A stretch of 64,000 nt of DNA from an uncultured Candidatus Saccharibacteria bacterium (GCA_964514595.1 CAZEQZ010000002.1:185663-249662), one strand, 5' to 3'. Counted from the first letter of the stretch, positions 29,860 through 54,458 are shown. The notes: generated by a model not told the origin, from the sequence alone. Translations and numbers: made by a program.

Positions 29860-31038
29860 CTATATTTTTACCAAGTATCTTGCACTTACCCACCCTACTA
29901 AATCAGCTCCATACTGTACCTGATACCAACCTTCCTCCTCCCCTAGTAAAATGAAGACAGTACCATCATCTGCACTGTCCAATATTTTACAACTTGACCA
30001 CCTACACTCTCTAATATTCACGAAATTATATGTCGGAGAAGATACTTCCACTAATTGCTTCTCTCCCCGAGAGATTTCAAATTTAACATCAAAAGAGGAT
30101 CCTTCAAATGGCTTTCCTTCAAACTTAAGCAATTCGAACGATTCAGTAGCTTCTCCTAATAAGACTCTTGCTTCCAATTCAAACTCCACCTCCACGGATT
30201 CTCCAGGTAGTATGTTCTTATCCGATACACTCACAGGCTTACTAAAACTTTCCCATTCCTGATTTATTGCAAAGCTACTCTCCTTCCCATCTTTTACAGA
30301 TATATATACTGGATCCCTGTCTGTGAACCAAATAAAGTCATTATTATTCTTAAATTTCACCTTCACCTTTAGCCTTTCTCCTATCTCCAATTGCTCTTCA
30401 TGCACCACCTCTTCTATTCTCGCTCGATATTCTAGGTTCTCCGCTTCATATCCTTCCCAGCCTGAAAGTACTTCCAATACTGAATTAGCAAACTCTCCAG
30501 ATATTTCCTCAGCTGTTATGGTAGATAGTTTTCCTTCTTCCTGGTTAATATTTAGCTTTACTACAGAAAGTTGAGATATTCCCCAATTAGAGGATATCTC
30601 CTCTACCATTTGATTTAAAGAATCGGTAGCCCTATTTGAAAGTATGGAGTTGTTTGACATATATCCTATTGTGACTGCACCTTCCACTTCTCTAAGCTCT
30701 GGATTAGCACCAACACCACCCTCTTTGCCTTGATATATTATCCCATTCTCATCAAGGAGGTATGTATATGGGAGGTCGGAGAAGTGTAGTCTGGTTATAC
30801 TGTAGTAGTAGAGAGTCTTAACCCATTTTGCAGGATCTCTAAGTAGTATGTCGGAATCTGTTGTTACTTGAGTTATGTATATCTTAACTGGATTACTGTA
30901 TATGGTATTAGACTTGTCTGATAGTGAAGTGTCAAATTTCTGACTTTGCGTTGAGTAGTATGAAAATGCCAAAGCAGATGTTGGCTTAAATAGTGCCAAA
31001 GTAAGAAGGAGTGTCAAAAAAAGAATTGTTTTCTTCAT
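29860..31038 (-). CDS. Secreted protein with a degenerate PGRP/amidase_2-like domain and C-terminal bacterial SH3 (SH3b) domain
   Basis: Signal peptide MKKTILFLTLLLTLALFKPTSALA. YTYLLDENGIIYQGKEGGVGAN...TIGYMSNN resembles the amidase_2 core, but the Zn-ligand His residues are replaced. The C-terminal GWYQVQYGADLVGWVSARYL is SH3b-like. Confidence 0.35.
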   Translation of the reverse strand: MKKTILFLTLLLTLALFKPTSALAFSYYSTQSQKFDTSLSDKSNTIYSNPVKIYITQVTTDSDILLRDPAKWVKTLYYYSITRLHFSDLPYTYLLDENGIIYQGKEGGVGANPELREVEGAVTIGYMSNNSILSNRATDSLNQMVEEISSNWGISQLSVVKLNINQEEGKLSTITAEEISGEFANSVLEVLSGWEGYEAENLEYRARIEEVVHEEQLEIGERLKVKVKFKNNNDFIWFTDRDPVYISVKDGKESSFAINQEWESFSKPVSVSDKNILPGESVEVEFELEARVLLGEATESFELLKFEGKPFEGSSFDVKFEISRGEKQLVEVSSPTYNFVNIRECRWSSCKILDSADDGTVFILLGEEEGWYQVQYGADLVGWVSARYLVKI

Positions 31039-31078: not shown

Positions 31079-32122
31079 TTATTCGGGTGCGGGATCTAGT
31101 AACTCTATCTCTTCTGTTTGCTTCTCTATTAAATATTCTGGATTTATACCACATAGATATACTTGTATTTCAGCAAGGTATGTACTTTTGGTAGAATCCA
31201 GCAGTTTTCCAGTTCCTGTTAATTTATACGCAGGGAAGACATATGAGTAATCATAGTTCATAAATACGTATAAATTATCTACGCCTTCAACTTCCAAAGA
31301 TGAGAGTCTAGCAGAAGAACGTACTAAAATATCTTGTTCCCAAAATCTTTCTTCCACAGAGTTTCTCATAAGGTGCATTGGATATTTTGTAAATTTGAGT
31401 ATCTCATCAACTGATATGGTAGGCATCTTCTGTATGGGAACCAATCCTCTCTCAACATCATGAAGAAGAATTGCAAGTGAATACATTCTATTATCCCCCT
31501 CAATACGAATTTCAAATGCATTTCCCTCTAGATATAAAGATCCATACTTAATACCATCCTTTACAAAGAATCCTTTATATAAGTATGAATTCTCGGACTG
31601 CTTCTTTGTCTCTAAAAGCTCTATCTTCTCAATATTAAAATATGTCTTTAAAAATATATCCAAGTCTTTTGCAGAATTAATTTTCATATCTAAGTTAAGT
31701 CCTGTTTGAGATGTAACATAAAATACTCCTGTGTCTTCATCGTATAAGAATGTGTCTGTTTCAAAGGTCTCGTATAATTGATTCTCGTTTGCAATATAAC
31801 GATCGTCCAAATCGTAGAAGTTCTTTATAAAGTTTCTTGCCACAGAGAGATCTGGCTTGTGTAGCTTATATACCATCTGATACTTATCGAATTCTGAGCT
31901 TTCTCCCTGGAGGTTTAATGTAAAATTATCGCTTAATTCCGCAAATGGACTCTCTATGGAGATTATCTCTCCTGCGGGGATATCTTCTTCAACCTTCTTT
32001 GATTTTAGAAAGATTATTGCAATAACAGATAAACCCAGAACAATTCCTATTATTATATACACACCGTAATTTTTTATTATTTTTTTTATTCTATCCATCT
32101 TATCTAGCAAATCCTTTAACAT
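31079..32122 (-). CDS. Bitopic membrane protein (N-terminal TM anchor, extracytoplasmic domain of about 300 aa), unknown function
   Basis: The single hydrophobic helix VYIIIGIVLGLSVIAIIFL follows a basic N-terminus. No catalytic motif was recognised. Confidence 0.4.
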   Translation of the reverse strand: MLKDLLDKMDRIKKIIKNYGVYIIIGIVLGLSVIAIIFLKSKKVEEDIPAGEIISIESPFAELSDNFTLNLQGESSEFDKYQMVYKLHKPDLSVARNFIKNFYDLDDRYIANENQLYETFETDTFLYDEDTGVFYVTSQTGLNLDMKINSAKDLDIFLKTYFNIEKIELLETKKQSENSYLYKGFFVKDGIKYGSLYLEGNAFEIRIEGDNRMYSLAILLHDVERGLVPIQKMPTISVDEILKFTKYPMHLMRNSVEERFWEQDILVRSSARLSSLEVEGVDNLYVFMNYDYSYVFPAYKLTGTGKLLDSTKSTYLAEIQVYLCGINPEYLIEKQTEEIELLDPAPE

Positions 32123-34649
32123 AACTCTTTATCTCAGAATCTAGTTTAGCTGTGCCCGAACTAGAAATACCTTTAGACCAATCTTCCAAGGTCTGTTGAT
32201 CATATCCTCTAGATAACATTGCATCCCTAATCTGTGTTCCAGATTTCACACCATCTATCGTATGAAATTTATATCCTCCATAATTTCCAGAGATTATCTC
32301 AGCTCCCACTTCCATTCCTAGAGGATTTCCATTTAACCCTCCGCTTCTATACTGTACTAGGTGCGTAACCTCATGGACCATGAGACCTTGGAAGTATGAT
32401 AATCCCGCAGAACCCGCCTTTGAAGAATTACATATTATTCCATTATACCTAGCTACACACCAAGCCCATTCACTATACGTACTAGAGAATGTTCCATCAT
32501 CCACAAAGGTCAAAGAAACTCCACTGAGTCCAAATCTTTCTAGGATACTATCGAAGATTTCTTGATAATCGCCTCCCAATAGTTGCCCTATCATATCCTC
32601 CTTCCCTACGGGAGTCCCCGTGGGATCTATTTCATCTATCATATCAGGAGCACCACATGATACTACTTCAAATGGAGCTACATGAGAATGTACCCCCAAA
32701 AGAGAGCTCCCGAATATGATGACAAATCCCGCAAGAGCAACTATTCCCGCTAGGAAATAAACCAAACCCTCCACACCTATCTTAATAGCGTGAGCACTCA
32801 TCTTCATTAAAGGTTGGGATAGTTTGTATACTAACTCAGAAGCAAGGAAACTAATTAATCCTGCGATAGGAGTTCCTACAACCCCAAGTGCAGACGAAAT
32901 TGCTGTAGTGATACCTTTAACTAAGGTTTGTACCCCTCCTTTCAACATCCAATCCTTTACTAAGGCAACTGCTACCGAATTTTTTATACCCAACAATAGT
33001 ACTTTTCCTACAGCATTTCTAACATGAGAAAGAACATGTTTATTTATTAATCCATCTATTTTATCCCTAATTCTTGATATTGTTCCAAATGTCTTATACA
33101 GGTTAGACAACCTCGCATCTTTTTTTAGAAATTTATCTATCATCTCCATTTGTTGAGTAGATACTCTTCCTGCCAAACTTCGTACATATGCATCATCTCC
33201 CTTCTCTAATTCTGCAAGAAATCTAGTCCAATCGAAATTCGATATCTCTCCTAAAATTTGTTTCTTAAACTTTTCCTGCGATCTATACGCTAGATATCCA
33301 AAGCCCTCTCCATCTATCAATGTCTTAACCCAAGCAGCCGGAGAAAGGTAGTAGACAGAATTCATTTTATCGAAGTATGCCTGCTGGAATCGATTAGTTG
33401 CTTCTTTTGCTGCATGGATCTTCAAACTATGCCCCCTTCTTGTAAATGCTTGCTCTTTAGATGGTTGTAACCAATTAATTTGATTATATTTATCTGCAAA
33501 GAATTTCCCGTTAAGAATATTCCCCATAAGGTTTCCGTCTATAAACAAATCTTTTGCAGAATAATACATTCCTTCCCATTGACCTAATTGCCCTGCAAAA
33601 TCTTCGAATCTAGACATTCTGATATCACCCTGTATGCTTCTCATTGAATTTTTTAGTTCCCTTATCTTCACATGCTTGTCTGGGTCGTTACTTCTTTGTA
33701 GTTGAGATATTGCATTAGAGATACTATTTAAATCTCCCTCTAATTTGTTTCTAAATGCTCTTGCAGCTGTTTGATCATATACATTGGCTACAACATCACT
33801 GGCTCTTTGATATTTCTCTGCCTTATCCATATCCCCCGCCATTCTTGCATCTACTGATTTTTTAGAAAGGTTAGCCTTTTCTAAGACGGTATATAGTTCA
33901 CGATTAACAAGTAATTCGTCTCTTATTTTTTCAAAGTTATTATTACTCAAGTGGGTGGAGTAGCTTTGTCTCCATTTTCTATATTGGTTCCACTTCATAT
34001 CCGCCTGTGCATCCCCTAGAGTACCACCGAACATATTTCTAAACTCCTGTCTTGTGAATTCCCTACTATTAGGATCTAGGTATCTTTGTGCTAATTTCTC
34101 ATTTCTGTATGTCACACCAAAGGTGTCGTATTGAGTTCTCATACCTATTGGTTTTTTTGTAAACTCATCTACTTTACCCCCTCTTCCTGCTGCAACCATT
34201 GCTTCTTGAGTATCCTTATCCAATCCATATTTCTTTGCCCACATGTATCCAACTATACCTCTCATTTCCTCCCCTGCCCAAGCTATTCGTTGCTGTTTTC
34301 TAATACCCTCTATCTTCTTGTATTGAGCATCTATGTATGTGCTCGGATTTTCCATCAACTTTTTCAGCTCTCCAAGATTGAACTTGATATTATCTGGAAC
34401 TCTCTTTCCTACACTTACGGTACCCACATCCACATCGAAGGCGTTATTGAAGGCCTCCATTGTCGTCTTATTTACATATAGGAGGGGATTTTCTAGTACA
34501 GCAGTTAAAGCATCAACCATTTCAGAGGAACCATCTACACCAGTGACCTTAACTGGCTTAACTTTATTGGGAGGCTTTTGGGACTCTTCAAATATGAAAT
34601 CAAAAACCGATCCCAGGGCATCTTCGTATTGCTTCTTTTGCTGTGGCAT
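32100..34649 (-). CDS. Large (849 aa) protein: soluble N-terminal region of about 640 aa, cluster of TM helices, C-terminal HExxH zincin-like domain
   Basis: No signal peptide. Hydrophobic helices around residues 640-730 (GLISFLASELVY, LVYFLAGIVALAGFVIIFGSSLL). Motif GLMVHEVTHLVQY with a downstream Glu (GMEVGAE) near the C-terminus. Confidence 0.45.
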   Translation of the reverse strand: MPQQKKQYEDALGSVFDFIFEESQKPPNKVKPVKVTGVDGSSEMVDALTAVLENPLLYVNKTTMEAFNNAFDVDVGTVSVGKRVPDNIKFNLGELKKLMENPSTYIDAQYKKIEGIRKQQRIAWAGEEMRGIVGYMWAKKYGLDKDTQEAMVAAGRGGKVDEFTKKPIGMRTQYDTFGVTYRNEKLAQRYLDPNSREFTRQEFRNMFGGTLGDAQADMKWNQYRKWRQSYSTHLSNNNFEKIRDELLVNRELYTVLEKANLSKKSVDARMAGDMDKAEKYQRASDVVANVYDQTAARAFRNKLEGDLNSISNAISQLQRSNDPDKHVKIRELKNSMRSIQGDIRMSRFEDFAGQLGQWEGMYYSAKDLFIDGNLMGNILNGKFFADKYNQINWLQPSKEQAFTRRGHSLKIHAAKEATNRFQQAYFDKMNSVYYLSPAAWVKTLIDGEGFGYLAYRSQEKFKKQILGEISNFDWTRFLAELEKGDDAYVRSLAGRVSTQQMEMIDKFLKKDARLSNLYKTFGTISRIRDKIDGLINKHVLSHVRNAVGKVLLLGIKNSVAVALVKDWMLKGGVQTLVKGITTAISSALGVVGTPIAGLISFLASELVYKLSQPLMKMSAHAIKIGVEGLVYFLAGIVALAGFVIIFGSSLLGVHSHVAPFEVVSCGAPDMIDEIDPTGTPVGKEDMIGQLLGGDYQEIFDSILERFGLSGVSLTFVDDGTFSSTYSEWAWCVARYNGIICNSSKAGSAGLSYFQGLMVHEVTHLVQYRSGGLNGNPLGMEVGAEIISGNYGGYKFHTIDGVKSGTQIRDAMLSRGYDQQTLEDWSKGISSSGTAKLDSEIKSYVKGFAR

Positions 34650-34662
34650 AGATATTTAAAAA

Positions 34663-35970
34663 CTATTTAAACATACTTCCAACAAATGGAACTTTTCCAA
34701 ATCCTTCCTTAATTGCCGCAGCTGCATCTGCACCACTCTTGGATGCTGTGGGAGGAATTATTGCTTTTGCCAAGGCAGGAGCTTGAACTGCAGCATAGAT
34801 AGCTATTAATTTTGCTAAAGCGATTAGCATAGGGCCCATATCTCCTATGCTTGCCTGATCACCTGTAAGAGATTTAGGAAAATCTATTGATATGTTTTTT
34901 GTTTCTAGATAGAAGGGTATGTTAACTATGGCAAATGCTATTGGAAAGACTAGGGCATTACGAAATATTGATTTAAATATATTAACTATACTAGCATCAT
35001 TTCCTGGTAAGGAGCCTAACATTATTGATAATGGAGCAACTATCACATTCAACAGTATAGCTAAGTATGATTTAACTAATGTAATCCAAAGCTTTATTGC
35101 TCCAACTAAGGCCGCTCCAGCAATAATTATTCCCAATATAATGGGGATTAATCCGGCTACCGCATTCAGTGTTGCTAACCCCAAGACTATTCCAACTAGA
35201 GATATTGAGGAACCTGTCTGAGCTCCTCCACTCCAAGTTACTGCCCAAATATCATGTATTGGGACCCCACTTCCTAGAAGACTTTTTATTACTGTCATAA
35301 GGACACCGCATATGTCAATAATTACTCCCGCTATGGCAAAACTAAAGGTTACCAAGACTAATGATATTACAACCCTTGGAAGTGTATTACCTAATGTTAC
35401 CAAGGTCTGACCTCCCAGTTTACTTCTAAACATTATCATAAAGCCTACTGCAATCATCACTACAACAAAGGCAAGGTACGCTATATTTCTTGTAAAGGAC
35501 CATATTTCATCAACACCGGTACTCCTAATATCATCATAACCTGAAGCATATATAGATTGTGTCTCTTTATATCCTGGAACCCATTCCCTTGAGAGATGTG
35601 CTATGACATCAATCCTTGGTTGAGAATCAAACATGGCTGTAACTTGACGTTCAGCGGTACCTAATAAACCGTATTTCATCTGATCAGGATAATTTCCTGT
35701 TTGTATCCTAGGATTCGCTTCCGTACACTCTGGACAAAGTATAGCAAGTATGAATTCTCCTATTCCCGTAATGATTTTCCCTACAAACTGGGCTATACTT
35801 TCCCCTACAAAGCCAGTCAGATCTCCAACAAAGGAAACTATATGTTCCCATGTGGTCTTTGTGTCTATGGGTTCACCTAGCGTATCTTGGGCCAGTATAG
35901 GGGAACTTAAGCTTGTGATGAATACAAATAGTGTGGTCATCAATACAACAATTATCCTAAGAGCTTTCAT
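34663..35970 (-). CDS. Polytopic membrane protein, TrbL/VirB6-like topology (signal peptide, extracytoplasmic loop with a Cys pair, about 6 TM helices, Ala-rich C-terminus)
   Basis: Hydropathy pattern. CPECTEANP loop. TM-rich Gly/Ala/Ile core. The family assignment is by architecture only. Confidence 0.35.
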   Translation of the reverse strand: MKALRIIVVLMTTLFVFITSLSSPILAQDTLGEPIDTKTTWEHIVSFVGDLTGFVGESIAQFVGKIITGIGEFILAILCPECTEANPRIQTGNYPDQMKYGLLGTAERQVTAMFDSQPRIDVIAHLSREWVPGYKETQSIYASGYDDIRSTGVDEIWSFTRNIAYLAFVVVMIAVGFMIMFRSKLGGQTLVTLGNTLPRVVISLVLVTFSFAIAGVIIDICGVLMTVIKSLLGSGVPIHDIWAVTWSGGAQTGSSISLVGIVLGLATLNAVAGLIPIILGIIIAGAALVGAIKLWITLVKSYLAILLNVIVAPLSIMLGSLPGNDASIVNIFKSIFRNALVFPIAFAIVNIPFYLETKNISIDFPKSLTGDQASIGDMGPMLIALAKLIAIYAAVQAPALAKAIIPPTASKSGADAAAAIKEGFGKVPFVGSMFK

Positions 35971-35997: not shown

Positions 35998-37440
35998 TTA
36001 TATTAACAAATAATGCTTTGCTGATTCTCTGTTTAATTCCAAAACTTCATTCCAATACTCTATAAACGTTGGAATAAAGTCTTCTTGACCAGGAGCCTTG
36101 TCTTTAGCCTGCATTCTATAATTCATTAGGAAAGGTGTCGCATCCCATAGACACCACACATCAAATTCTCCTGTTGCTCCATTATCATAAGTTGCTATAC
36201 CACTACATTGTGTAGCTACATAGAACATTAAACTATCTTCAATATTATTAGAGACCTCCTTCTTAGAGGCTGTTTGAAAAGGAGCCTGTGTAGCAAGGTA
36301 TGTGTATGTCATAAAAGCATTAGAACATATACCATTATTACAATCATATGTGTTCCCAAATATTGGTGTCATTTCTACCATGAGACCCCTAGATCTAGGA
36401 CATTTCTCACGCTTAATAGATTTATTCCCCTCTTCATCTATAATTTCAACACCATCTTCATCACAGTAGTCCCATTGATTGGAGCTAAACGTTTGTCTAA
36501 AAAGACCCTTGAAGCGTGTATATATTGATCTTTGGTCACACGCCTTCCATACCCCATCATTAGTACCTAAAAAAGTAACACTAACACTACTCAAACACTC
36601 CGCTTCTCGTTGATAATCATAATTATCTCCTCCTGGGATTTGCTGTCTCGTAAAGCCACCCCCGCTATCTCCCCTCAGATTACTAGCCCCAACGTTGAAA
36701 TCGCTTGTACTAACCTCACGAGGACAGTTACACGCGGGATCATTTTCCGCATTATCTATGTTATATCTTCCATCTCTCTTTTCCTGCTCCTGATTAGCAG
36801 AGACAGTTAATTGACCAGTAACTTCAAATGCCTGTCTTTCAGTAGCTGGCAACTCTTTCACGAAGGCATCGGACTGATATGGAGCCATAGTCTTTTCCAC
36901 TATCGCACCTTCCCACTCTCCACTAGAAGAATACGACGGATCATCCACTCTAATCTGTCTGTTACTATCCTTCATAGTATATGGACCTAACCAGAGAGCG
37001 AGAGGATATGTGACCATAGTAAGTTCAAAATCAACTATATTTTCCACCTCAACTTCATCTCCGGAGAATCCCACAGGATCACCTCCATAATTAGGAACTT
37101 CATAGTGAATCTGTGCACCACCAGATGAGCAAAGCCTTCTCTCCAAATCTACAATATTAGCAGGTTGTCTACACAAAGATGATATCTCTCCCTTAACCTC
37201 TCCTCCCTCTGCATACTCGGTAGCGTTACTATCTTCCAAAAATACATACTCTACATTCTCTGTTACTATATTTTCTTCCCTACTAGGAGAGCATGTTGAG
37301 CACTGTTGCGCATCTTTATTCAACCACCTCCCATCGAACGAAACCTTTATACTTTTAGCTAGGTATACTGAGAAAAGAGCAAAGAATAGCATGCCTAAAA
37401 GAAACAAGATCCCATTTTTCCTACTATTTTTTATACTCAT
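35998..37440 (-). CDS. Secreted cysteine-rich protein (480 aa, about 17 Cys)
   Basis: N-terminal signal anchor (ILFLLGMLFFALFSVYLA). Cys clusters (CSTCSP, PACNCPRE, DYCDEDG, YDCNNGICSN). No known catalytic motif. Confidence 0.4.
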   Translation of the reverse strand: MSIKNSRKNGILFLLGMLFFALFSVYLAKSIKVSFDGRWLNKDAQQCSTCSPSREENIVTENVEYVFLEDSNATEYAEGGEVKGEISSLCRQPANIVDLERRLCSSGGAQIHYEVPNYGGDPVGFSGDEVEVENIVDFELTMVTYPLALWLGPYTMKDSNRQIRVDDPSYSSSGEWEGAIVEKTMAPYQSDAFVKELPATERQAFEVTGQLTVSANQEQEKRDGRYNIDNAENDPACNCPREVSTSDFNVGASNLRGDSGGGFTRQQIPGGDNYDYQREAECLSSVSVTFLGTNDGVWKACDQRSIYTRFKGLFRQTFSSNQWDYCDEDGVEIIDEEGNKSIKREKCPRSRGLMVEMTPIFGNTYDCNNGICSNAFMTYTYLATQAPFQTASKKEVSNNIEDSLMFYVATQCSGIATYDNGATGEFDVWCLWDATPFLMNYRMQAKDKAPGQEDFIPTFIEYWNEVLELNRESAKHYLLI

Positions 37441-39293
37441 AATGCTCTAATCATTTTACCCCCTTTCCTTTGTCTTGTCACACTTCCTTTATATGTGACT
37501 ACCCCTATAGAGATAAGGGCAAAGGAAAGCAATATTAAGTATACTACATTATCCAATATTCCTGTTTTTGGAGTTTCTATCCCCGAATCTACTTCATACT
37601 CTGAATCGTCTGGAGTAACTACTAAATCAGGATTTACACCCGTACTATGTCCTAAGATTCCGTAGTTCTGAAGTAGCTCTACCCTTGTATACCCCACTCC
37701 TGAGCTAGAATTCCCCTCTACGGATATTTCAACATCCCTATCACTTATGCCTTGCATTTTCTCTGTATGTGTACTTGCTGAGAATGTTGTTACCAAATTT
37801 ACATTAAGCGAATCTTCAGACGTATACTCAAAGTATGAGGTACCGTCCTGAACTCTACTTTCGGCTATTGATAGTATCCATTTACCATTCTCATCAACTA
37901 GGGTAGAGAGTTTTAGACTTTCTCCCTTACTTCCTGCACCATCTTCATCCTTAATATGTACCGTAACTACTACTTCCTTATGCTCTGGCATACCATCTAT
38001 CACTCCAGTCACAGATTCGAATGGTGGAGGAGATGTAAGTGTAGAGAAAGTTTTCACTACATATTTATTCCCCCCATTATCGTATTTATTATCCCCTGAT
38101 TCTATCTCAAAGAAATACTCAGTATCTGGTTGTAGTCTACTTAGAACTACAGAGTGGATATAGTAGTTACTTTTTGTTGTAAGGCCATCTCTTTCATCAG
38201 TAGCTTGACTAGACAAAGAATCACGGGAAGTTCCATAGTTAATATGACCTTTCTCTTTATTCTCTGATATCCAAAGAACCGTAAAGCCTGTGTCTGTTAG
38301 GTTTGTTGTTTGCACACTTGCAGCACCAGACACACCCGAGACTGCTGATCCATCTCCCGTGACCATATCTATCCATTGCAAATTATGTACTATCCTAAAT
38401 ACTCTTCCTGTGTTTCCAGTTGGAGTATCATCTGTCTCCTGGGCTGGAGGGGTTGTCGGAGTTGTTGGCGTTGTCGGTTGTGTGGGCTCTTCTGGTTCTG
38501 CTACAAATGCCTCCAACATAGATACAGGAGGAAAGTCGTTGTATAGAGAGGAATTATCGCCAATTGTTAAGGCATACACATCCTTCAATTTACCACTGCT
38601 ATCAAATAGTTCGGAGTATGTACCTTCCTGTACTGCACCTTTATTAGGACCGGAGATAGCAACAAGAACTATGTTAGTAGAATTGGTAACTACAATAGGG
38701 GTCTTATTGGCAATACTTCTAAATGCAGAGAGGTCTATAACCCAATTACCTCCTGTGGGAATGGTGGTTGATACAGGATACGCAGATTTATCTTTAAGAA
38801 GGGCATATATTATTACATCGTCTCCCACTACCCCCTTAATTCCTCCATGTATGGGATTGGGAGTTGCAGACGTCTCTGTTATTGGAGCAGTTTTGAATGC
38901 AAAGTTTTTGTTTCCTTCACTACGATACTTCTCTCTATCCGATACTATTACAAATTCGTATTGAGTATTTGGATCTAAGTCTTCAATATCGATATGGTGC
39001 GTGTATCTTCTTCTATTACCTCTTTTTGTATCAACAATGGGACTTTTTTCTATTCCATTTTGGATAGGTATTACAGAACCAAATGACTGTACATCTGTGA
39101 CCCAGCTTACGGTAACGGCACTTGTAGTTAATTTACTAATAACAACATTACGAGGTTGTGCCTCTGCTGACGCTCTCGTTATGAGTTGGTATGCTTGGTA
39201 TGATGCAAAAACTACCAAAGGTATTCCTATTAACAGTATCCCTATTATCGTGAGATCTCTTCTTCTTTTACTAGGTACAGTAGCTATTCTCAT
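37437..39293 (-). CDS. Cell-surface protein: N-terminal TM, two purple-acid-phosphatase-N-type fibronectin-III-like domains, Pro/Thr linker, C-terminal TM anchor with basic tail
   Basis: VVISKLTTSAVTVSWVTD...YTHHIDIEDLDPNTQYEFVI and FTVLWISENKEKGHINYG...YYIHSVVLSRLQPDTEYFFEI. PTQPTTPTTPTTPP linker. The C-terminal ETPKTG + LILLSFALISIGVV + RQRKGGK. Confidence 0.5.
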   Translation of the reverse strand: MRIATVPSKRRRDLTIIGILLIGIPLVVFASYQAYQLITRASAEAQPRNVVISKLTTSAVTVSWVTDVQSFGSVIPIQNGIEKSPIVDTKRGNRRRYTHHIDIEDLDPNTQYEFVIVSDREKYRSEGNKNFAFKTAPITETSATPNPIHGGIKGVVGDDVIIYALLKDKSAYPVSTTIPTGGNWVIDLSAFRSIANKTPIVVTNSTNIVLVAISGPNKGAVQEGTYSELFDSSGKLKDVYALTIGDNSSLYNDFPPVSMLEAFVAEPEEPTQPTTPTTPTTPPAQETDDTPTGNTGRVFRIVHNLQWIDMVTGDGSAVSGVSGAASVQTTNLTDTGFTVLWISENKEKGHINYGTSRDSLSSQATDERDGLTTKSNYYIHSVVLSRLQPDTEYFFEIESGDNKYDNGGNKYVVKTFSTLTSPPPFESVTGVIDGMPEHKEVVVTVHIKDEDGAGSKGESLKLSTLVDENGKWILSIAESRVQDGTSYFEYTSEDSLNVNLVTTFSASTHTEKMQGISDRDVEISVEGNSSSGVGYTRVELLQNYGILGHSTGVNPDLVVTPDDSEYEVDSGIETPKTGILDNVVYLILLSFALISIGVVTYKGSVTRQRKGGKMIRAL

Positions 39294-39341: not shown

Positions 39342-42300
39342 TTATCTTACACTAGGATGCCAGTTACCTACACCCTTTATAACCCTTACGAAGTATGATC
39401 TTTGTTTTTCTATAGGAAAATCAAAGCCGTAGGTTTGAGCACTACCCTCTACAGAAGTATCTCTTTGAAAACCTTCATACGACCCCTTACTCTCTTGCCA
39501 CCTAGTAACATTATCTGCATCAAAATCTATACCTTTGTAGTTAGCTATGTCTTCTAATAATGATTTAGCTGTGTATGATTTAGCCTTAGAACCGTATACC
39601 CCTACTAAGTTCCATCCAGGAATTAGTAGTATGGGTGCAGAATCTCCTATTTGTTCATATTTTATTTCTTTACCAAAGAGAGAAACTCTTATATCCTTTT
39701 TAACATTTAACAGATATCCCTCACCTGGGAGTATCCTAAAGTCATTCTGATCATAGTTACCTGCATTAGCTCCAACTGAGATCCATTTACCATTTTCTAA
39801 TTTTGATATAGAGGAAACAGAATTACCAATGACACTGTTTAGATATTTAATAAGACCGGAAGCTTTATTTAATTCAGATCTTTCATTTATAAAAGGAAAG
39901 GATATCAAATTGAAACCTTTTTTAAGGTCATACCTGTATTCTCTTTGTATTGTAATAACCTCTAAGGTTTCAAAATCTTTACTTAGATTAGTATCTCCTG
40001 AGTCTATTATTCCGTTACCATTAGAGTCCAAGTATACATCAGCACCTTTTGAGTCTGTATCATTTATTATAGCTAAGTAATAATCACCATTTACATTGAA
40101 TATATGCACCCCTCTTCCTACCCTCTCCAAGATGTCTTCTTTTGTATTTATAATATATGACTCGAACTCCTCTGTCTCTTCAGCAAAAACTTTCCCTAAG
40201 ATACTAAATCCTTTGCTCTCAAAGCTTAAGCTTTTATCTTCATTTGTATTCTGAATACTACACCTAGTGTATCTCCCTGAGCCCGAGCCACATACTCCAA
40301 AGTCTTCTATATACGTTTTTATAGCAAAATTTCTATCTTGTGTTGCTTTCATACTCTCGTATTTTTCCTGAGTAATAGGGACCCACTCTTCCTCTGCTGT
40401 AAATTCGTTAATTAATATAGTGGCTACTACAACTCCCCCTACCACAAGAGCTGCTGTTCCCAATCCGACACCCGTTGTTGCCGCTGCTGCTTCTGTAGTT
40501 ATATATATTGTTGGCGCCTGACTAACCGCAAGAGCTGAAGTAGAAGTAGATGCGGCTGTGGTAGCTAGCGATGAGCCTGTGTATACTGTAAGTGCTTTGG
40601 TCCCTACGTAGGGGACAATAGGATACAAACTAGCAGAGGCATATGGCATATCATCAAGTATCTTCTGTATTTCAGGATCTGGTTCTTTTGCATTATTTTC
40701 TTTAAACTTTGCCCATAGTCGATCTACTGCACCTATACTATCACAGTGATAATACATACCTGTATCCGCATTATGATATAGAGTACCCGCTTGCCCATCA
40801 CATTCCTTTCCTGACAAATTGTCAGCCGGAGGGACTTGTAGAAAAGGCATTGCCTGAGCACCAGCTTCTGCATCTATACCAACCCCTTCATCTGGACTCA
40901 TAGAAATACCGTACTCATGTCCTTCGATCCCCCAACGTTTCGTTTCTCCATTACATTTAAGACTACCATCTATGGTAACATAGCCATCACTAAACCAACA
41001 TTTATATGTATAACTATAACAATCCCGTGTAGTACCTGTATTAAATCCTCCACATAGACCTCTACTGTCGGCTTCATCCGCCATTCTATCCCTTAATTCA
41101 TCTGTATATTTATCTTCCGTATCTGGATGTACTTTCACTCTTCCATCTGGGGTACATAAGCACATTTGTGCTGGACCGATGGGTTTTTGTTCATTTGCAC
41201 ACGCACAATCACACTCTTGACTATTACTATATCCACACATCCCCATGTGTCCACAAATATCACCTACACATGTACCTTGTACTCTATTAAAATTAATCTC
41301 ACAATCAGAAGTAAAAACGTCAAAGGTCCCAAGACCAGAAACATTAATTCTTTTACACATTGGAATATCTACCCCATCTATTTTTTTTGTACATGCGTCG
41401 TTAAAACAACTTCCCAGTTCACAACTAACTGAACCTTGCCCCCCACTTGTATCTCTTCCATTAGAACCTGCAAATATCTGTTCATTTATATCCGCATCTA
41501 TAGGGTCCGTACAAGAACCATCAAGCGGATCTAAACAATACCCACCATCATTACTAGGTTCAAATTTAGGAGTACAATCGGGATCCCCCCACCCCAATCT
41601 AGAATCACTACAAACTTCACATTGATTATTATCTCCTCCATCTGTATCCTCCGCACTCACTCCGAAAACAAAAGCTCTTAAATCTATACCATTGAAATCC
41701 TTATTTGTATTAACTACCTCCTTATTCTCTTTCCCAAAAGAATTACCCTCATATATGACACTCTCATCTAACTCATCATCCATTCTCATATCTATAGCCT
41801 TTGCAGGTGCCTTATTATATACATCTATCTCAGTACTCCATCTCCCTTTCCACGTATTCTCTATCGTTAACTTAAGTTTTATATATGTACCTTCATAATC
41901 CTTTACACTATCCCAAAAAGTTGTACCATCCTCCATATATGCATTCATAATATCTAAATACCATCCACCTTCTTCATTTGTAATAGATGAAATCATCTCA
42001 GATTCCACTTGATATATCTCTTCATATACCGTCGCATACACTATTGCATCAGAAGGCCTCTCATAGCCAACCACATCATCTACGTAGTACCTAACAACTC
42101 CATATGCTGGTTCAGGAGTCCTAATTTCCTCAATCTCTTTTCCTGTCTTAAAAGAGTATTCCCCAGTATTCTCAGAAGAAACCCTCTTAAACACATTCCC
42201 ATCCCCAATCATGAAATAGTACTCTTTATTAGATTCCAAACCTCGTATGGTAGCATGATGGACATAATATTCACCCATATCTGTAACTACTATATCGGTA

Positions 42301-42731
42301 AATATCTCCCCTGCATCCACACTACTACTTCCTTCCTCTGATACTTTCTCAGAATTCCTCTGTGCCTCATCTAATTCAGCCTTAGTATAGTCTCTATCAT
42401 CATATGCTAACAAAGAGTTTCCAATCTTGGGCATAAAGGGAAGAATAAAATTTCTCTCCTGATACATAACCATCCCAGGAGTTGGCTCTTCTGTAATCCA
42501 AGATACTGTTGCTGATCCTGCAGTCACATTACTAACCATTACCCTATATGGCACAAAAGAGGATGCCTTATACCATCCCCATATACCTATTCCTATAACG
42601 GCTACTAAACAAACAACTAATACAGGAATAATTACTTTAAGGAAATTAAACTTACCCTTTTCTTTAACCTCAACTTGCTGAACCTGCGGTTCTACGACTG
42701 AAGGAGGAGTCTCTTGATTACCTTCGTACAT
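39342..42731 (-). CDS. Giant (1129 aa) surface protein: N-terminal TM, PAP-N-type Fn3-like domain, long Cys-rich extracellular module, internal hydrophobic segment, C-terminal domain
   Basis: MVSNVTAGSATVSWITEEPTPGMVMYQE...YYVHHATIRGLESNKEYYFMIGDG is paralogous to the neighbouring 618-aa protein. More than 40 Cys lie between residues about 365-660. A TM-like GVGLGTAALVVGGVVVATIL segment follows. Confidence 0.5.
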   Translation of the reverse strand: MYEGNQETPPSVVEPQVQQVEVKEKGKFNFLKVIIPVLVVCLVAVIGIGIWGWYKASSFVPYRVMVSNVTAGSATVSWITEEPTPGMVMYQERNFILPFMPKIGNSLLAYDDRDYTKAELDEAQRNSEKVSEEGSSSVDAGEIFTDIVVTDMGEYYVHHATIRGLESNKEYYFMIGDGNVFKRVSSENTGEYSFKTGKEIEEIRTPEPAYGVVRYYVDDVVGYERPSDAIVYATVYEEIYQVESEMISSITNEEGGWYLDIMNAYMEDGTTFWDSVKDYEGTYIKLKLTIENTWKGRWSTEIDVYNKAPAKAIDMRMDDELDESVIYEGNSFGKENKEVVNTNKDFNGIDLRAFVFGVSAEDTDGGDNNQCEVCSDSRLGWGDPDCTPKFEPSNDGGYCLDPLDGSCTDPIDADINEQIFAGSNGRDTSGGQGSVSCELGSCFNDACTKKIDGVDIPMCKRINVSGLGTFDVFTSDCEINFNRVQGTCVGDICGHMGMCGYSNSQECDCACANEQKPIGPAQMCLCTPDGRVKVHPDTEDKYTDELRDRMADEADSRGLCGGFNTGTTRDCYSYTYKCWFSDGYVTIDGSLKCNGETKRWGIEGHEYGISMSPDEGVGIDAEAGAQAMPFLQVPPADNLSGKECDGQAGTLYHNADTGMYYHCDSIGAVDRLWAKFKENNAKEPDPEIQKILDDMPYASASLYPIVPYVGTKALTVYTGSSLATTAASTSTSALAVSQAPTIYITTEAAAATTGVGLGTAALVVGGVVVATILINEFTAEEEWVPITQEKYESMKATQDRNFAIKTYIEDFGVCGSGSGRYTRCSIQNTNEDKSLSFESKGFSILGKVFAEETEEFESYIINTKEDILERVGRGVHIFNVNGDYYLAIINDTDSKGADVYLDSNGNGIIDSGDTNLSKDFETLEVITIQREYRYDLKKGFNLISFPFINERSELNKASGLIKYLNSVIGNSVSSISKLENGKWISVGANAGNYDQNDFRILPGEGYLLNVKKDIRVSLFGKEIKYEQIGDSAPILLIPGWNLVGVYGSKAKSYTAKSLLEDIANYKGIDFDADNVTRWQESKGSYEGFQRDTSVEGSAQTYGFDFPIEKQRSYFVRVIKGVGNWHPSVR

Positions 42732-42802: not shown

Positions 42803-43126
42803 CTACTTCTTCAAACCTGAGAAAAAATCTCCTACTATTGATATTGTACTACCTATCTTCTTAATGGGTATTAGTATAGCTTCATTTATCTTCCCAACAG
42901 TACCTTTTACTGTGGACACCATATCCTGCACATCATCTACTATGAGAGTAGCCTGTTCCATTATCTTGTTAGCATTCTTTATTATCTCTCTGGAATCTTT
43001 AACAGCATCCTTCGATTCCCTTATGAGCATAGCCAAATAGTATAGAACCAAGGAGAACATAATCGTAATGGCCGATACAATAATCATCCAAAATATCGCC
43101 GGTATTTCTGACATAGTAATAATCAT
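42803..43126 (-). CDS. Small membrane protein, DUF948-like (N-terminal TM plus coiled coil)
   Basis: A 107-aa protein. An N-terminal hydrophobic helix is followed by a charged helical segment (KDAVKDSREIIKNANKIMEQATLIVDDVQDMVSTVKG). Confidence 0.4.
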   Translation of the reverse strand: MIITMSEIPAIFWMIIVSAITIMFSLVLYYLAMLIRESKDAVKDSREIIKNANKIMEQATLIVDDVQDMVSTVKGTVGKINEAILIPIKKIGSTISIVGDFFSGLKK

Positions 43127-52486: not shown

Positions 52487-53584
52487 TCAATATTCTTTTG
52501 AAAGCTTGTCCCATAATTCCTTTTCTCTCCTGTTTAACCTTGTTGGTATATCGACATTTATCCTAACATACTGATCTCCCCTTTCTCCCTCTCTATTAAA
52601 TACAGGACATCCCTTGTTTTTAAGTTTAAATATTGTCCCAGACTGTGTACCTTTAGGAATTTTTAATTTAACATCCCCTGTTATTGTTTCCACAGATATC
52701 GTTCCTCCTAAAACTGCAACGGGTACCGGGATATTTTCTTCTGAATAAATATCATTACCCCTCCTATCAAACTTCTCTGATGCTTCAACTTCTATTTCAA
52801 TATATAGATCTCCCACTGTACCTTGATTCCTTCCTGTATTCCCCCCACCTCTAAACCTAAGAACCATACCATCGTATGCACCTGCAGGGATTTTAATGGT
52901 TAATGTTTCTTCCTTACTTTTTACTCCTGTACCTTTACACTCCTTACACGGATTTTCTATAACCTTGCCTGTACCTTGACAATTGGAACATGTTGACATC
53001 ACTGCCATCTGCCCAAGAATTGTATTTCTAACCTGTCTCTGTTGACCTGTTCCATTACAGACAGGACATTCCTTTGTCTTACCATCATCACTACCAGTAC
53101 CTTCACATTTTTCACACCTATCTTCTCTCTTAATCTTTATCTTATACTCTCCCCCCTTCATTGCTTCATCAAAACTAACCCTAACCTTATACCTTATATC
53201 TGAGCCAACATCTTCCCTAGGACCTCTACCCTGTGTACCAAAATCAAAACCAAATCCACTGCCAAAATTACCTCCTCCAAAGAAGGTATTGAAGATATCA
53301 CCCATATCAAACGGAGTACCTTGAAAATCGTATCCATTTCCCGCAGTTCCGGGATTAAATCCTGCTGTACCAGCATGACCGTACTGATCGTATGCCTTTC
53401 TCTTTCCTTCATCCGAGAGAGTTTCGTATGCCTCCTGTATTTCTTTAAATTTCTCTTCTGCATCCGATTCCTTATTTACATCAGGATGATATTTTTTAAC
53501 AAGCTTTCTGTATGCTTTTTTAAGCTGATCACCGCTTGCATCTTTTTTAACACCTAATACTTCATAGTAGTCTCGTTTTTCCAT
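52487..53584 (-). CDS. dnaJ: Chaperone DnaJ (J domain, Gly/Phe region, four CxxCxGxG zinc-finger repeats, C-terminal domains)
   Basis: DYYEVLGV...HPD J-domain; [32 protein letters not shown]. Confidence 0.92.
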
Positions 53585-53663
53585 AACAGAATGATTTTAG
53601 CAAAGTATGTATATATTTGCTACCCATTTTATCTACAATCTTAAATCTGCTAATATCTATACT

Positions 53664-54458
53664 ATGGAAAATAGTTGGAACGTACAAACACATAGTGAAA
53701 ACAAAGTACGAAGAATACGCATATGGATATCTGCTGTATTGGCACTGTCTGGTTTAGTTATAGTTTCCAGCCAGGTTATACCTTTGACAAAATCATACGT
53801 GGAGGGAGTGGTGGAACAAAGGAGAGTTGACATAAAGGTGGATCCTGTACCAGAGTCGTATAAAAAATATATAGAAGAAGAGTTCGCATATTATGATCCT
53901 GGGAAGAGCTACTTTGCAAATCTTTCCCAGCAGTTGGGGAATTTAGACATTACAGGACAATACTCATATAACCCAGATACCAAGACACAAAGAGAAGTTC
54001 TAATAGACAGAGAGTACAAGACGGATATGTCCGTCACTATTGAGAGTGTAGGGATTAAAAATATTAAAATATCATCGAACGTGGAGAGTTCTAATGAATC
54101 TGTATACAATCAATATCTTAAAAATGGTGTTGCCCACTTTAAAGGTACACCTCTTCCGGGAGATGGAGGAAATTCGTTCATATATGGGCATAGCGCTGTT
54201 GAATCATTTTTTAGTAGACATAGGGATTTGCCTGAAACAATATTTTCTAGACTGAATGATATAGATATTGGACAAAAGGTTGTTGTAAATAGAGAGGATA
54301 AAGTATTAGAATATATCGTAAGGAACAAGAAGATTGTAGATCCTGATGATTTTACAATCCTACAACCTTTACACAACAAAGAAACAGTAACATTAATGAC
54401 TTGTTGGCCTTTGGGTATAGGAACTAAGAGATTAATAGTAGTTGCTGAAAGGAGATAA
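53664..54458 (+). CDS. Sortase (cysteine transpeptidase); the ORF is open from 53607, but the second Met at 53664 is the more plausible start
   Basis: N-terminal TM anchor. Catalytic His in NSFIYGHSAV. TLxTC motif VTLMTCWP. Conserved Arg nine residues later (TKRLIVVAE). Confidence 0.7.
   Translation: MENSWNVQTHSENKVRRIRIWISAVLALSGLVIVSSQVIPLTKSYVEGVVEQRRVDIKVDPVPESYKKYIEEEFAYYDPGKSYFANLSQQLGNLDITGQYSYNPDTKTQREVLIDREYKTDMSVTIESVGIKNIKISSNVESSNESVYNQYLKNGVAHFKGTPLPGDGGNSFIYGHSAVESFFSRHRDLPETIFSRLNDIDIGQKVVVNREDKVLEYIVRNKKIVDPDDFTILQPLHNKETVTLMTCWPLGIGTKRLIVVAERR

Follow-up and report, generated by a model that had tools for sequence, protein, structure and literature searches.

A divergent VirB6-like membrane protein of Dojkabacteria, encoded about 38 kb from the VirB4 operon of a candidate split T4SS

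The stretch of DNA analysed here (64 kb, hereafter the window) encodes a 435-residue polytopic membrane protein, the target, which is probably (probability of about 0.8) the channel or platform subunit of a chromosomal, monoderm-type T4SS of a Dojkabacterium. A VirB6-type protein is by far the best reading, since the fold, sequence and context lines, each weak to moderate alone, converge: the target would be the Dojkabacteria version of a very divergent, unannotated VirB6-like family. The VirB4 ATPase is encoded on the same contig, past the end of the window, and the system would be a split but otherwise ordinary T4SS, not an ATPase-less one.

The target belongs to a run of eight co-directional genes separated by gaps of -23 to +71 bp, given here from the first gene to the last.

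42803..43126, minus strand: g107, small single-TM helical protein, first gene of the cluster, syntenic in 62 of 88 loci
39342..42731, minus strand: g1129, giant Cys-rich surface protein with a Pur_ac_phosph_N/FN3-like domain (Pfam)
37437..39293, minus strand: g618, surface protein with FN3 / purple-acid-phosphatase-N-like domains (Pfam)
35998..37440, minus strand: g480, signal-anchored secreted protein with 14 Cys, directly upstream of the target (27-bp gap)
34663..35970, minus strand: the target, VirB6-like polytopic membrane protein, 435 aa, ATG start
32100..34649, minus strand: g849, membrane protein, 13-bp gap to the target
31079..32122, minus strand: g347, N-terminally anchored extracytoplasmic protein, 23-bp overlap with g849
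29860..31038, minus strand: g392, secreted protein with a C-terminal bacterial SH3 domain of the cell-wall-binding type, last gene before uvrD

The large surface proteins that had been noticed beside the target are thus real, the 618- and 1129-residue products carrying FN3 / Pur_ac_phosph_N domains according to Pfam. The former has an N-terminal anchor and a C-terminal TM segment with a basic tail, its gene overlaps that of g480 by 4 bp, and it is syntenic in 67/88 loci. The latter, with 27 Cys and two TM segments, is a variable member found in 38 of the 88 loci. The secreted protein g480, present in 57/88 loci, displays 11 invariant Cys columns and has no match in Pfam, the PDB or PHROG, nor any homology to the large secreted proteins whose genes precede family members in other CPR T4SS clusters, and its occurrence is specific to Dojkabacteria-type clusters. 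At the other end, the SH3 domain of g392 is recognised by Pfam SH3_3 (E=2.2e-9), next to a weak PHROG amidase match (E=1.3e-3), and this gene is syntenic in 57 of the 88 loci. The order rsmB/rsmE - g107 - g1129 - g618 - g480 - target - g849 - g347 - g392 - uvrD is kept, among these loci, down to about 30% target identity, which marks the cluster as belonging to the core genome rather than to a mobile element. Around it, Pfam analysis of the large ORFs identified only housekeeping genes (ribosomal-protein operon, EF-G, EF-Tu, UvrD, PNPase, IF-2, NusA, DnaJ and AlaRS), and a walk along the contig to the left of the window met housekeeping genes only.

The topology of the target agrees with what the preliminary description had proposed, namely a signal peptide, an ectodomain of about 130 residues with a CPECTE cysteine pair, and six TM helices, as judged from hydropathy and an AlphaFold2 model. 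Residues 1-27 form an N-terminal hydrophobic signal/anchor ending at ILA|QD, followed by an acidic, mostly helical ectodomain segment of about 128 residues (28-155; 19 D+E versus 9 K+R) in which C79-P-E-C82 is located. Six strong TM segments follow, at 163-181, 200-218, 274-292, 303-321, 331-349 and 382-400, and a seventh is probably present at 256-272; the six to seven hydrophobic helices behind the signal peptide include the five or more that VirB6/TrbL proteins possess. The C-terminal tail, also predicted to be Ala-rich, is indeed rich in Ala and Lys. The charges of loops and tail, read by the positive-inside rule, are consistent with an N-out/C-in orientation, in which the tail, with its 5 Lys, and the short loop RSKLGGQ behind TM1 would face the cytoplasm. 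The AlphaFold2 model is all-helical and its layout agrees with hydropathy. The two CPEC positions are Cys in 25/38 and 21/38 of the close homologues, and in about 12 of 40 sequences across the wider family; the pair is only a clade-specific feature and does not define the family.

Curated profiles do not recognise the target. It has no match in Pfam at E<=10, PF04610 included, so that the profile check proposed for the VirB6/TrbL assignment failed, and none in NCBIfam at E<=1; the lack of any VirB6/TrbL model recognising it in these scans counts against the VirB6 reading. The family profile likewise retrieves no PDB sequence, and PF04610 yields weak, sub-threshold matches in 3/56 distant family members, the best at E=5e-4. 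The fold comparison gave the opposite outcome: in a Foldseek search of the target model against 350,542 chains, TrwI/VirB6 chains occupy ranks 1-4, with probabilities of 0.75-0.98 and modest TM-scores (0.39-0.46). T4SS channel proteins come first by two independent structure-comparison methods, among more than 48,000 and more than 350,000 chains, and their aligned stretches are far longer than those of any other structure match. No PrgH/TcpH chain, a type that these libraries may lack, stands among the best-ranked PDB matches. The model thus shares the fold of the solved VirB6, TrwI of R388.

A remote sequence relationship points in the same direction. A reference alignment was built from 11 authentic plasmid VirB6 proteins (R388, IncN, Agrobacterium, Rhizobium, Xanthomonas and others), and hhalign placed the broad family alignment on it with P=1.7e-4 over 102 columns, at a probability of only 49%. 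In this same alignment, and at the same 49% probability, P313, invariant in the family, is matched to the invariant Pro of the VirB6 motif 'GPIFI', and a Trp that is consensus in the family (25/40 sequences) to the invariant VirB6 Trp. The latter position is Ile331 in the target, and Ile, Val, Thr or Leu in the Dojkabacteria subgroup. A narrow, Dojkabacteria-only alignment is not significantly similar to VirB6 (E=0.045). The VirB6/TrbL-like identity first put forward from the layout of the protein is therefore partly supported, by fold, remote profile match and gene context, and not by any curated profile.

All homologues of the target are annotated as 'hypothetical proteins' and come from Candidatus Dojkabacteria (WS6) and Microgenomates; none has a precomputed Pfam domain. 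A profile built on 38 of them retrieves, at E<=1e-3, at least 4,057 representatives of clusters at 50% identity, 1,021 of them at E<=1e-30, and at least 566 relatives were found by scanning GTDB species genomes: the target belongs to a Patescibacteria family that is large and unannotated. At two loci (L007 and L087), members of the family occur as tandem paralogues.

The genomic surroundings of this family in other lineages were explored by a metagenome scan seeded with its most distant subgroup, whose members are 580-610 residues long, yielding 80 loci. Small two-TM genes of the PF18895 type (T4SS_pilin) adjoin the family member in 35/80 loci, many as tandem arrays, while VirB4 (PF19044 P-loop_TraG, PF12846, PF03135) is present in 6/80 and VirD4 (PF10412) in 3/80. 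Among the long loci (>=18 kb), 8 of 22 harbour VirB4 or VirD4 within 10 kb of the family member. A recurrent order starts with pilins, followed by a large secreted protein, the family member and, on the opposite strand, a large soluble protein; it continues with a PrgI-like two-TM protein, a TraC-like protein of about 230 residues, VirB4, a membrane protein with a C-terminal M23 domain and an anchored protein of about 340 residues. The family member occupies the VirB6 slot, as it is the sole polytopic protein of the mapped clusters. Since many distant-subgroup loci lack VirB4 within 10 kb, the separation of the VirB6-like and VirB4 sets is not peculiar to Dojkabacteria. Two candidate features of such loci were discarded: Walker-A motifs in several hydrolase-type proteins of about 1,400 residues, judged to be due to chance given their scattered positions, and locus L084 (275 aa, family member, 668 aa, 813 aa) as a PrgI...VirB4 layout, nothing in it matching the Dojkabacteria VirB4, PrgI or TraC-like proteins.

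The two genes downstream of the target have counterparts in these clusters. In the g849 protein, a cytoplasmic helical N-terminal domain of about 540 residues is followed by three TM helices and a C-terminal domain outside the cell. Its orthologues carry Peptidase_M23 in 14/29 cases and CHAP in 1/29, and the family profile matches M23 endopeptidases of the PDB (E=5.6e-6). In the window copy, the M23 domain is replaced by a C-terminal domain with an HEVTH motif, and no hydrolase domain is recognisable. Aligned by hhalign with the TM+M23 proteins encoded behind VirB4 in CPR T4SS clusters, the family reaches 98.2% (E=3.9e-14) over the M23 domain only, and a BLAST similarity extends over the TM+M23 part (E=1e-7); in loci L166/L167, the g849 equivalent comes after VirB4. 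From the hydrolase domain of its orthologues, g849 would be a functional analogue of the VirB1/PrgK-like hydrolase. As for g347, which possesses an N-terminal TM helix, its family aligns over its full length with the gene located after the TM+M23 hydrolase gene of CPR T4SS clusters (hhalign, 97.0%, E=8.1e-11, 304 columns), and its position in the gene order is that of the VirB8-like PrgL/TraM in monoderm systems. Neither its profile nor a merged profile matches anything beyond noise in Pfam or the PDB, VirB8-like chains included, and an AF2 model from 3 sequences (the homology search returned two proteins) has a pLDDT of 41. A 'VirB8-like' label for g347 would thus be one of gene position; judged by sequence, it appears to be a conserved partner of the T4SS hydrolase, and both g849 and g347 are predicted to belong to the secretion system of the target.

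The presence of such a protein without any T4SS ATPase in its neighbourhood had been pointed out as an oddity. This holds for the window and for the 10 kb on either side of Dojkabacteria-type loci, but not for the genome. In the 64 kb, Pfam analysis of submitted ORFs of at least 120 residues identified no VirB4/VirD4/VirB11-type ATPase, a scan of the cluster genes no Walker A motif, and tblastn with CPR VirB4/VirD4 no match; a VirB4/VirD4-like gene lies within ±10 kb of the family gene in 0/88 loci, nearly all of them of the Dojkabacteria type. The search for VirB4 beyond the window had a different outcome. Walking from the last gene of the window along Logan SRR10872661_23080, the contig that also carries the target, and annotating with Pfam revealed a VirB4 operon outside the window:

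72,296-76,202 in window-equivalent positions, plus strand: PrgI-like / TraC-like / VirB4 operon
first gene of the operon, plus strand: PrgI-like protein, 275 aa, PF12666
second gene, plus strand: TraC-like protein, 211 aa, PF26593
third gene, plus strand: VirB4, 813 aa; PF19044, AAA_10, DUF87

VirB4 displays a Walker A motif, AKSGAGKS, at residue 347. The operon is located 37.8 kb from the target and 8.3-9.8 kb past the right end of the window, and the apparent 'VirB6 without ATPase' is explained by a window boundary that excludes it. The PrgI-like protein is recorded on a contig of 760,270 bp, and the longest contig recorded for the target has this length too. Compared with the VirB4s that other lineages encode next to family members, this VirB4 shows 49-54% identity, and the TraC-like and PrgI-like proteins are homologous to the partners found in the clusters of those lineages. 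In a divergent Dojkabacteria genome (GCA_964480345.1), whose target homologue is 46% identical, the same operon is found about 42 kb away, in divergent orientation; for at least five further homologue pairs, the longest contigs recorded for the two loci match, which suggests that these too share contigs. A cumulative GC-skew minimum at about 53.25 kb and a gene-orientation switch fall between the two loci, which thus stand on either side of an origin-like strand switch. Next to the PrgI/TraC-like/VirB4 operon of this genome, there is no alternative VirB6 candidate. Three observations count against the VirB6 reading: in Dojkabacteria-type loci, VirB4 is never within 10 kb of the family gene, and the ~85 kb of this genome that were read yielded neither a T4SS pilin gene nor a VirD4 coupling protein. 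No relaxase was seen in these ~85 kb either. Two kinds of pilin candidates were dismissed: g107, which has one TM only and gives no BLAST match with a CPR pilin query, and small two-TM ORFs of the window, which are antisense artefacts.

These elements suggest a system built from two modules. By analogy with TrwI/VirB6 of R388 and with DotA, the target would oligomerise in the cytoplasmic membrane and form the base of a translocation conduit, its helical ectodomain projecting outward. The anchored hydrolase g849 might open or remodel the peptidoglycan of its own or of the host cell wall, and g347 may be a further conserved envelope component. Together with the VirB6-like protein, they would make up an envelope module set among FN3, SH3 and Cys-rich surface proteins, while the second locus, encoding the PrgI(VirB3)-like protein, the TraC-like protein and VirB4, would be the energising module. 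The two loci, separated by about 38-42 kb, are in divergent orientation on the two sides of the origin-like strand switch. As the energising module is encoded separately, the ATPase would be supplied in trans, and the PrgI-like, TraC-like and VirB4 proteins would energise assembly and transport through a physical or functional coupling with the target module that we infer.

Three other readings of the cluster have been weighed. The target could be a VirB6-derived paralogue acting in an ATPase-independent complex for host attachment or cell-wall breaching, the VirB4 locus serving something else. Several observations go in this direction: the cluster is tightly conserved as a unit together with g480, g618 and g392, which are without counterparts in other CPR T4SS clusters, its Dojkabacteria-type version never adjoins VirB4, 14 of the 22 long non-Dojkabacteria loci have no VirB4 within 10 kb, and the family has tandem paralogues. 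We nevertheless consider this reading unlikely, because it leaves VirB4 without a channel subunit, the operon having no other VirB6 candidate, whereas the same VirB4 is 49-54% identical to those standing directly beside family members elsewhere; the relative arrangement of both loci is also fixed in two divergent genomes, and the at least five further homologue pairs suggest shared contigs. That the target might instead be an unrelated, permease-like polytopic scaffold, an alternative raised at the outset, would make its VirB6 likeness convergent, as expected of any all-helical membrane bundle. This is very improbable: T4SS channel proteins come first by both structure-comparison methods, the invariant Pro and the consensus Trp are in register in the profile alignment, no transporter family of Pfam or NCBIfam matches, and family members are embedded in pilin/VirB4/VirD4 clusters at the place expected of VirB6.

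The third reading, a prophage or mobile-element remnant comprising a tape-measure-like protein with M23 and a holin-like membrane protein, draws on the long helical region, hydrophobic segments and orthologous C-terminal M23 of g849, which are indeed tape-measure-like, and on the weak PHROG amidase match of g392. It is hardly credible and was rejected, being effectively refuted by the core-genome synteny that places the cluster between rsmB/rsmE and uvrD/fusA across the whole class, to about 30% identity. Besides, PHROG matches are found in 0/7 of the other cluster proteins scanned, target and g849 included, tblastn of the target against 72,556 plasmids gives no match, and there is no integrase, tRNA or compositional anomaly.

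Beyond the split T4SS preferred here, a more far-reaching proposal can be formulated, which we regard as doubtful. In Dojkabacteria, the VirB6-like protein, the hydrolase and g347 would have been detached from the ATPase operon and turned into a pilus-less, T4SS-derived host-contact conduit for feeding or injection, which VirB4 would join transiently or never; their operon would be hard-wired with the giant FN3 proteins, the disulfide-rich secreted protein and the SH3 wall-binding protein, and the wider family would be the 'missing' VirB6 of Patescibacteria.

Classical VirB6 possesses about five TM helices, whereas the target has about seven, preceded by a cleavable-type signal peptide and a helical N-terminal ectodomain of about 130 residues. 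Compared with the VirB6/TrbL proteins (PF04610; TrwI of R388, PDB 7O3V/8RT9; A. tumefaciens VirB6), it displays about 12-17% identity without a Pfam match, and in the Dojkabacteria subgroup Ile takes the place of the conserved Trp. Its surroundings differ as well, since the gene before it encodes the Cys-rich 480-residue protein in place of any VirB5-like gene, and virB4 is 38 kb away. DotA of the Legionella Dot/Icm system (DotA-IcmX protochannel, PDB 9NGY), a diderm type IVB machine, is much larger, with a solved chain of 857 residues; it has no detectable sequence similarity to the target and its Foldseek rank is only 36.

The closest parallel among monoderm systems, PrgH/TcpH/ConG of the MPF-FATA type (pCF10), is one of gene set: a VirB6-like protein, a PrgI-like protein with VirB4 (PrgJ-like), an anchored hydrolase that is PrgK-like (M23/CHAP in orthologues) and an anchored protein of about 340 residues in the PrgL position. 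The system described here differs in being chromosomal, part of the core genome and split over two loci, and its hydrolase g849 differs from the PrgK type by a long cytoplasmic N-terminal domain. To our knowledge, such a domain is present in no PrgK-type protein.

The T4SS already described in Patescibacteria (Quinonero-Coronel et al. 2025, PMC12102498; Southlakia epibionticum, Wang et al. 2023 via PMC12857230) belong to the same phylum and have the same VirB4 type. The likeness extends to an ATPase of the PF19044 type encoded behind PrgI and a small TraC-like protein, to a chromosomal location near an origin-like strand switch and, in other lineages, to target-family members adjoining tandem pilin arrays. 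These systems are reported as MPF-FATA-related, and their genes as often near the origin (PMC12102498), a placement with which the flanking of the strand switch observed here fits. The same survey found VirB6 homologues in only 480 cases versus 2,474 VirB4s, VirB6 being rare in Microgenomatia and missing from Gracilibacteria, 'suggesting extreme sequence divergence', and its Table S1 marks VirB4 as present in two Dojkabacteria genomes (PMC12102498). A cultivated Saccharibacterium cannot grow epibiotically without its T4SS (Wang et al. 2023, cited in PMC12857230).

The existence of T4SS in Patescibacteria (PMC12102498) and their essentiality in one Saccharibacterium (PMC12857230, citing Wang et al. 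2023) are thus already known, as described in these sources. What is new is a large family, missed by Pfam and NCBIfam, in the VirB6 slot of T4SS clusters from several Patescibacteria lineages, together with a conserved two-locus T4SS layout in Dojkabacteria. The latter illustrates that an apparent 'VirB6 without ATPase' can result from the splitting of a system into two loci, here about 38-42 kb apart. The general understanding of T4SS is unchanged and the interest moderate, for specialists: annotators gain three profiles (VirB6-like, M23-type hydrolase and the ~340-residue partner) for the Patescibacteria T4SS parts list, and structural biologists gain defined channel candidates. For the organisms themselves, the T4SS is the one envelope machine that a cultivated Patescibacterium has been shown to need for its epibiotic life (Wang et al. 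2023, cited in PMC12857230), and the target family, which matches no VirB6/TrbL model of Pfam or NCBIfam, may account for part of the VirB6 gap of this phylum.

Directly upstream of the VirB6-like gene lies g480, a Cys-rich protein, in the slot of virB5, the gene found immediately upstream of the VirB6 gene in classical T4SS:

35998-37440, minus strand: g480, 480 amino acids, signal-anchored, 14 Cys

Eleven Cys columns are invariant across the g480 orthologues. Pfam, PDB and PHROG searches gave no match for the protein, and the T4SS clusters of other Patescibacteria hold no equivalent of it.

The T4SS-associated, membrane-anchored hydrolase-type protein g849 carries an M23 domain in 14 of 29 orthologues and a CHAP domain in one. 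The window copy has lost the M23 domain and harbors in its place an unassigned domain with the motif HEVTH (HExxH, zincin-like); the business end of g849 looks like a site of domain swapping. Elsewhere, in some lineages, a ~950-residue N-terminal cytoplasmic domain brings the T4SS-associated TM+M23 hydrolase to ~1,400 residues. In g849 the corresponding N-terminal stretch of 540 residues may be a shortened form of that domain, although demonstrated homology is confined to the M23 domain.

32100-32750: C-terminal ~210 residues of g849, HEVTH-bearing domain
L105 15465-19667, L114 14855-19093, L130 15260-19480: ~1,400-residue TM+M23 hydrolases

Members of the VirB6-like family itself are duplicated in tandem in some lineages. 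One copy, 845 residues long, possesses an N-terminal extension of ~450 residues that recalls the "extended VirB6" paralogues of Rickettsiales.

L007 8198-12538, L087 7760-11257: tandem VirB6-like duplicates

In non-Dojkabacteria T4SS clusters, a protein of ~640-1280 residues is consistently encoded right after the VirB6-like gene, convergently on the opposite strand (L105, L114, L130, L140, L142, L151, L166 and L167). It is soluble in most of these eight loci, and no convincing P-loop was found in any of them. In two divergent Dojkabacteria genomes, a 77-residue ORF overlapping the 3' end of virB4 is conserved; its hydropathy is not that of a pilin.

L182 13891-14124, L184 8936-9169: 77-residue ORF

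At its C-terminus, g618, the surface protein with FN3 domains, has a hydrophobic helix followed by a basic tail, as in a sortase substrate; a search of g618 for an LPxTG-type motif found none. A sortase gene is located 14 kb away, at a strand switch:

37437-39293, minus strand: g618
52487-53584, minus strand: dnaJ, left flank of the switch
53607-54458, plus strand: sortase gene, right flank of the switch

All window genes to the left of ~53,250-53,610 are on the minus strand and all those to the right on the plus strand, and the cumulative GC-skew minimum falls at the same place. Neither a dnaA gene nor a DnaA-box cluster was found nearby. This change in skew and orientation is an origin-like strand switch, and the two T4SS loci of the contig, the VirB6-like cluster and the PrgI-like/TraC-like/VirB4 operon, flank it, one on each side.
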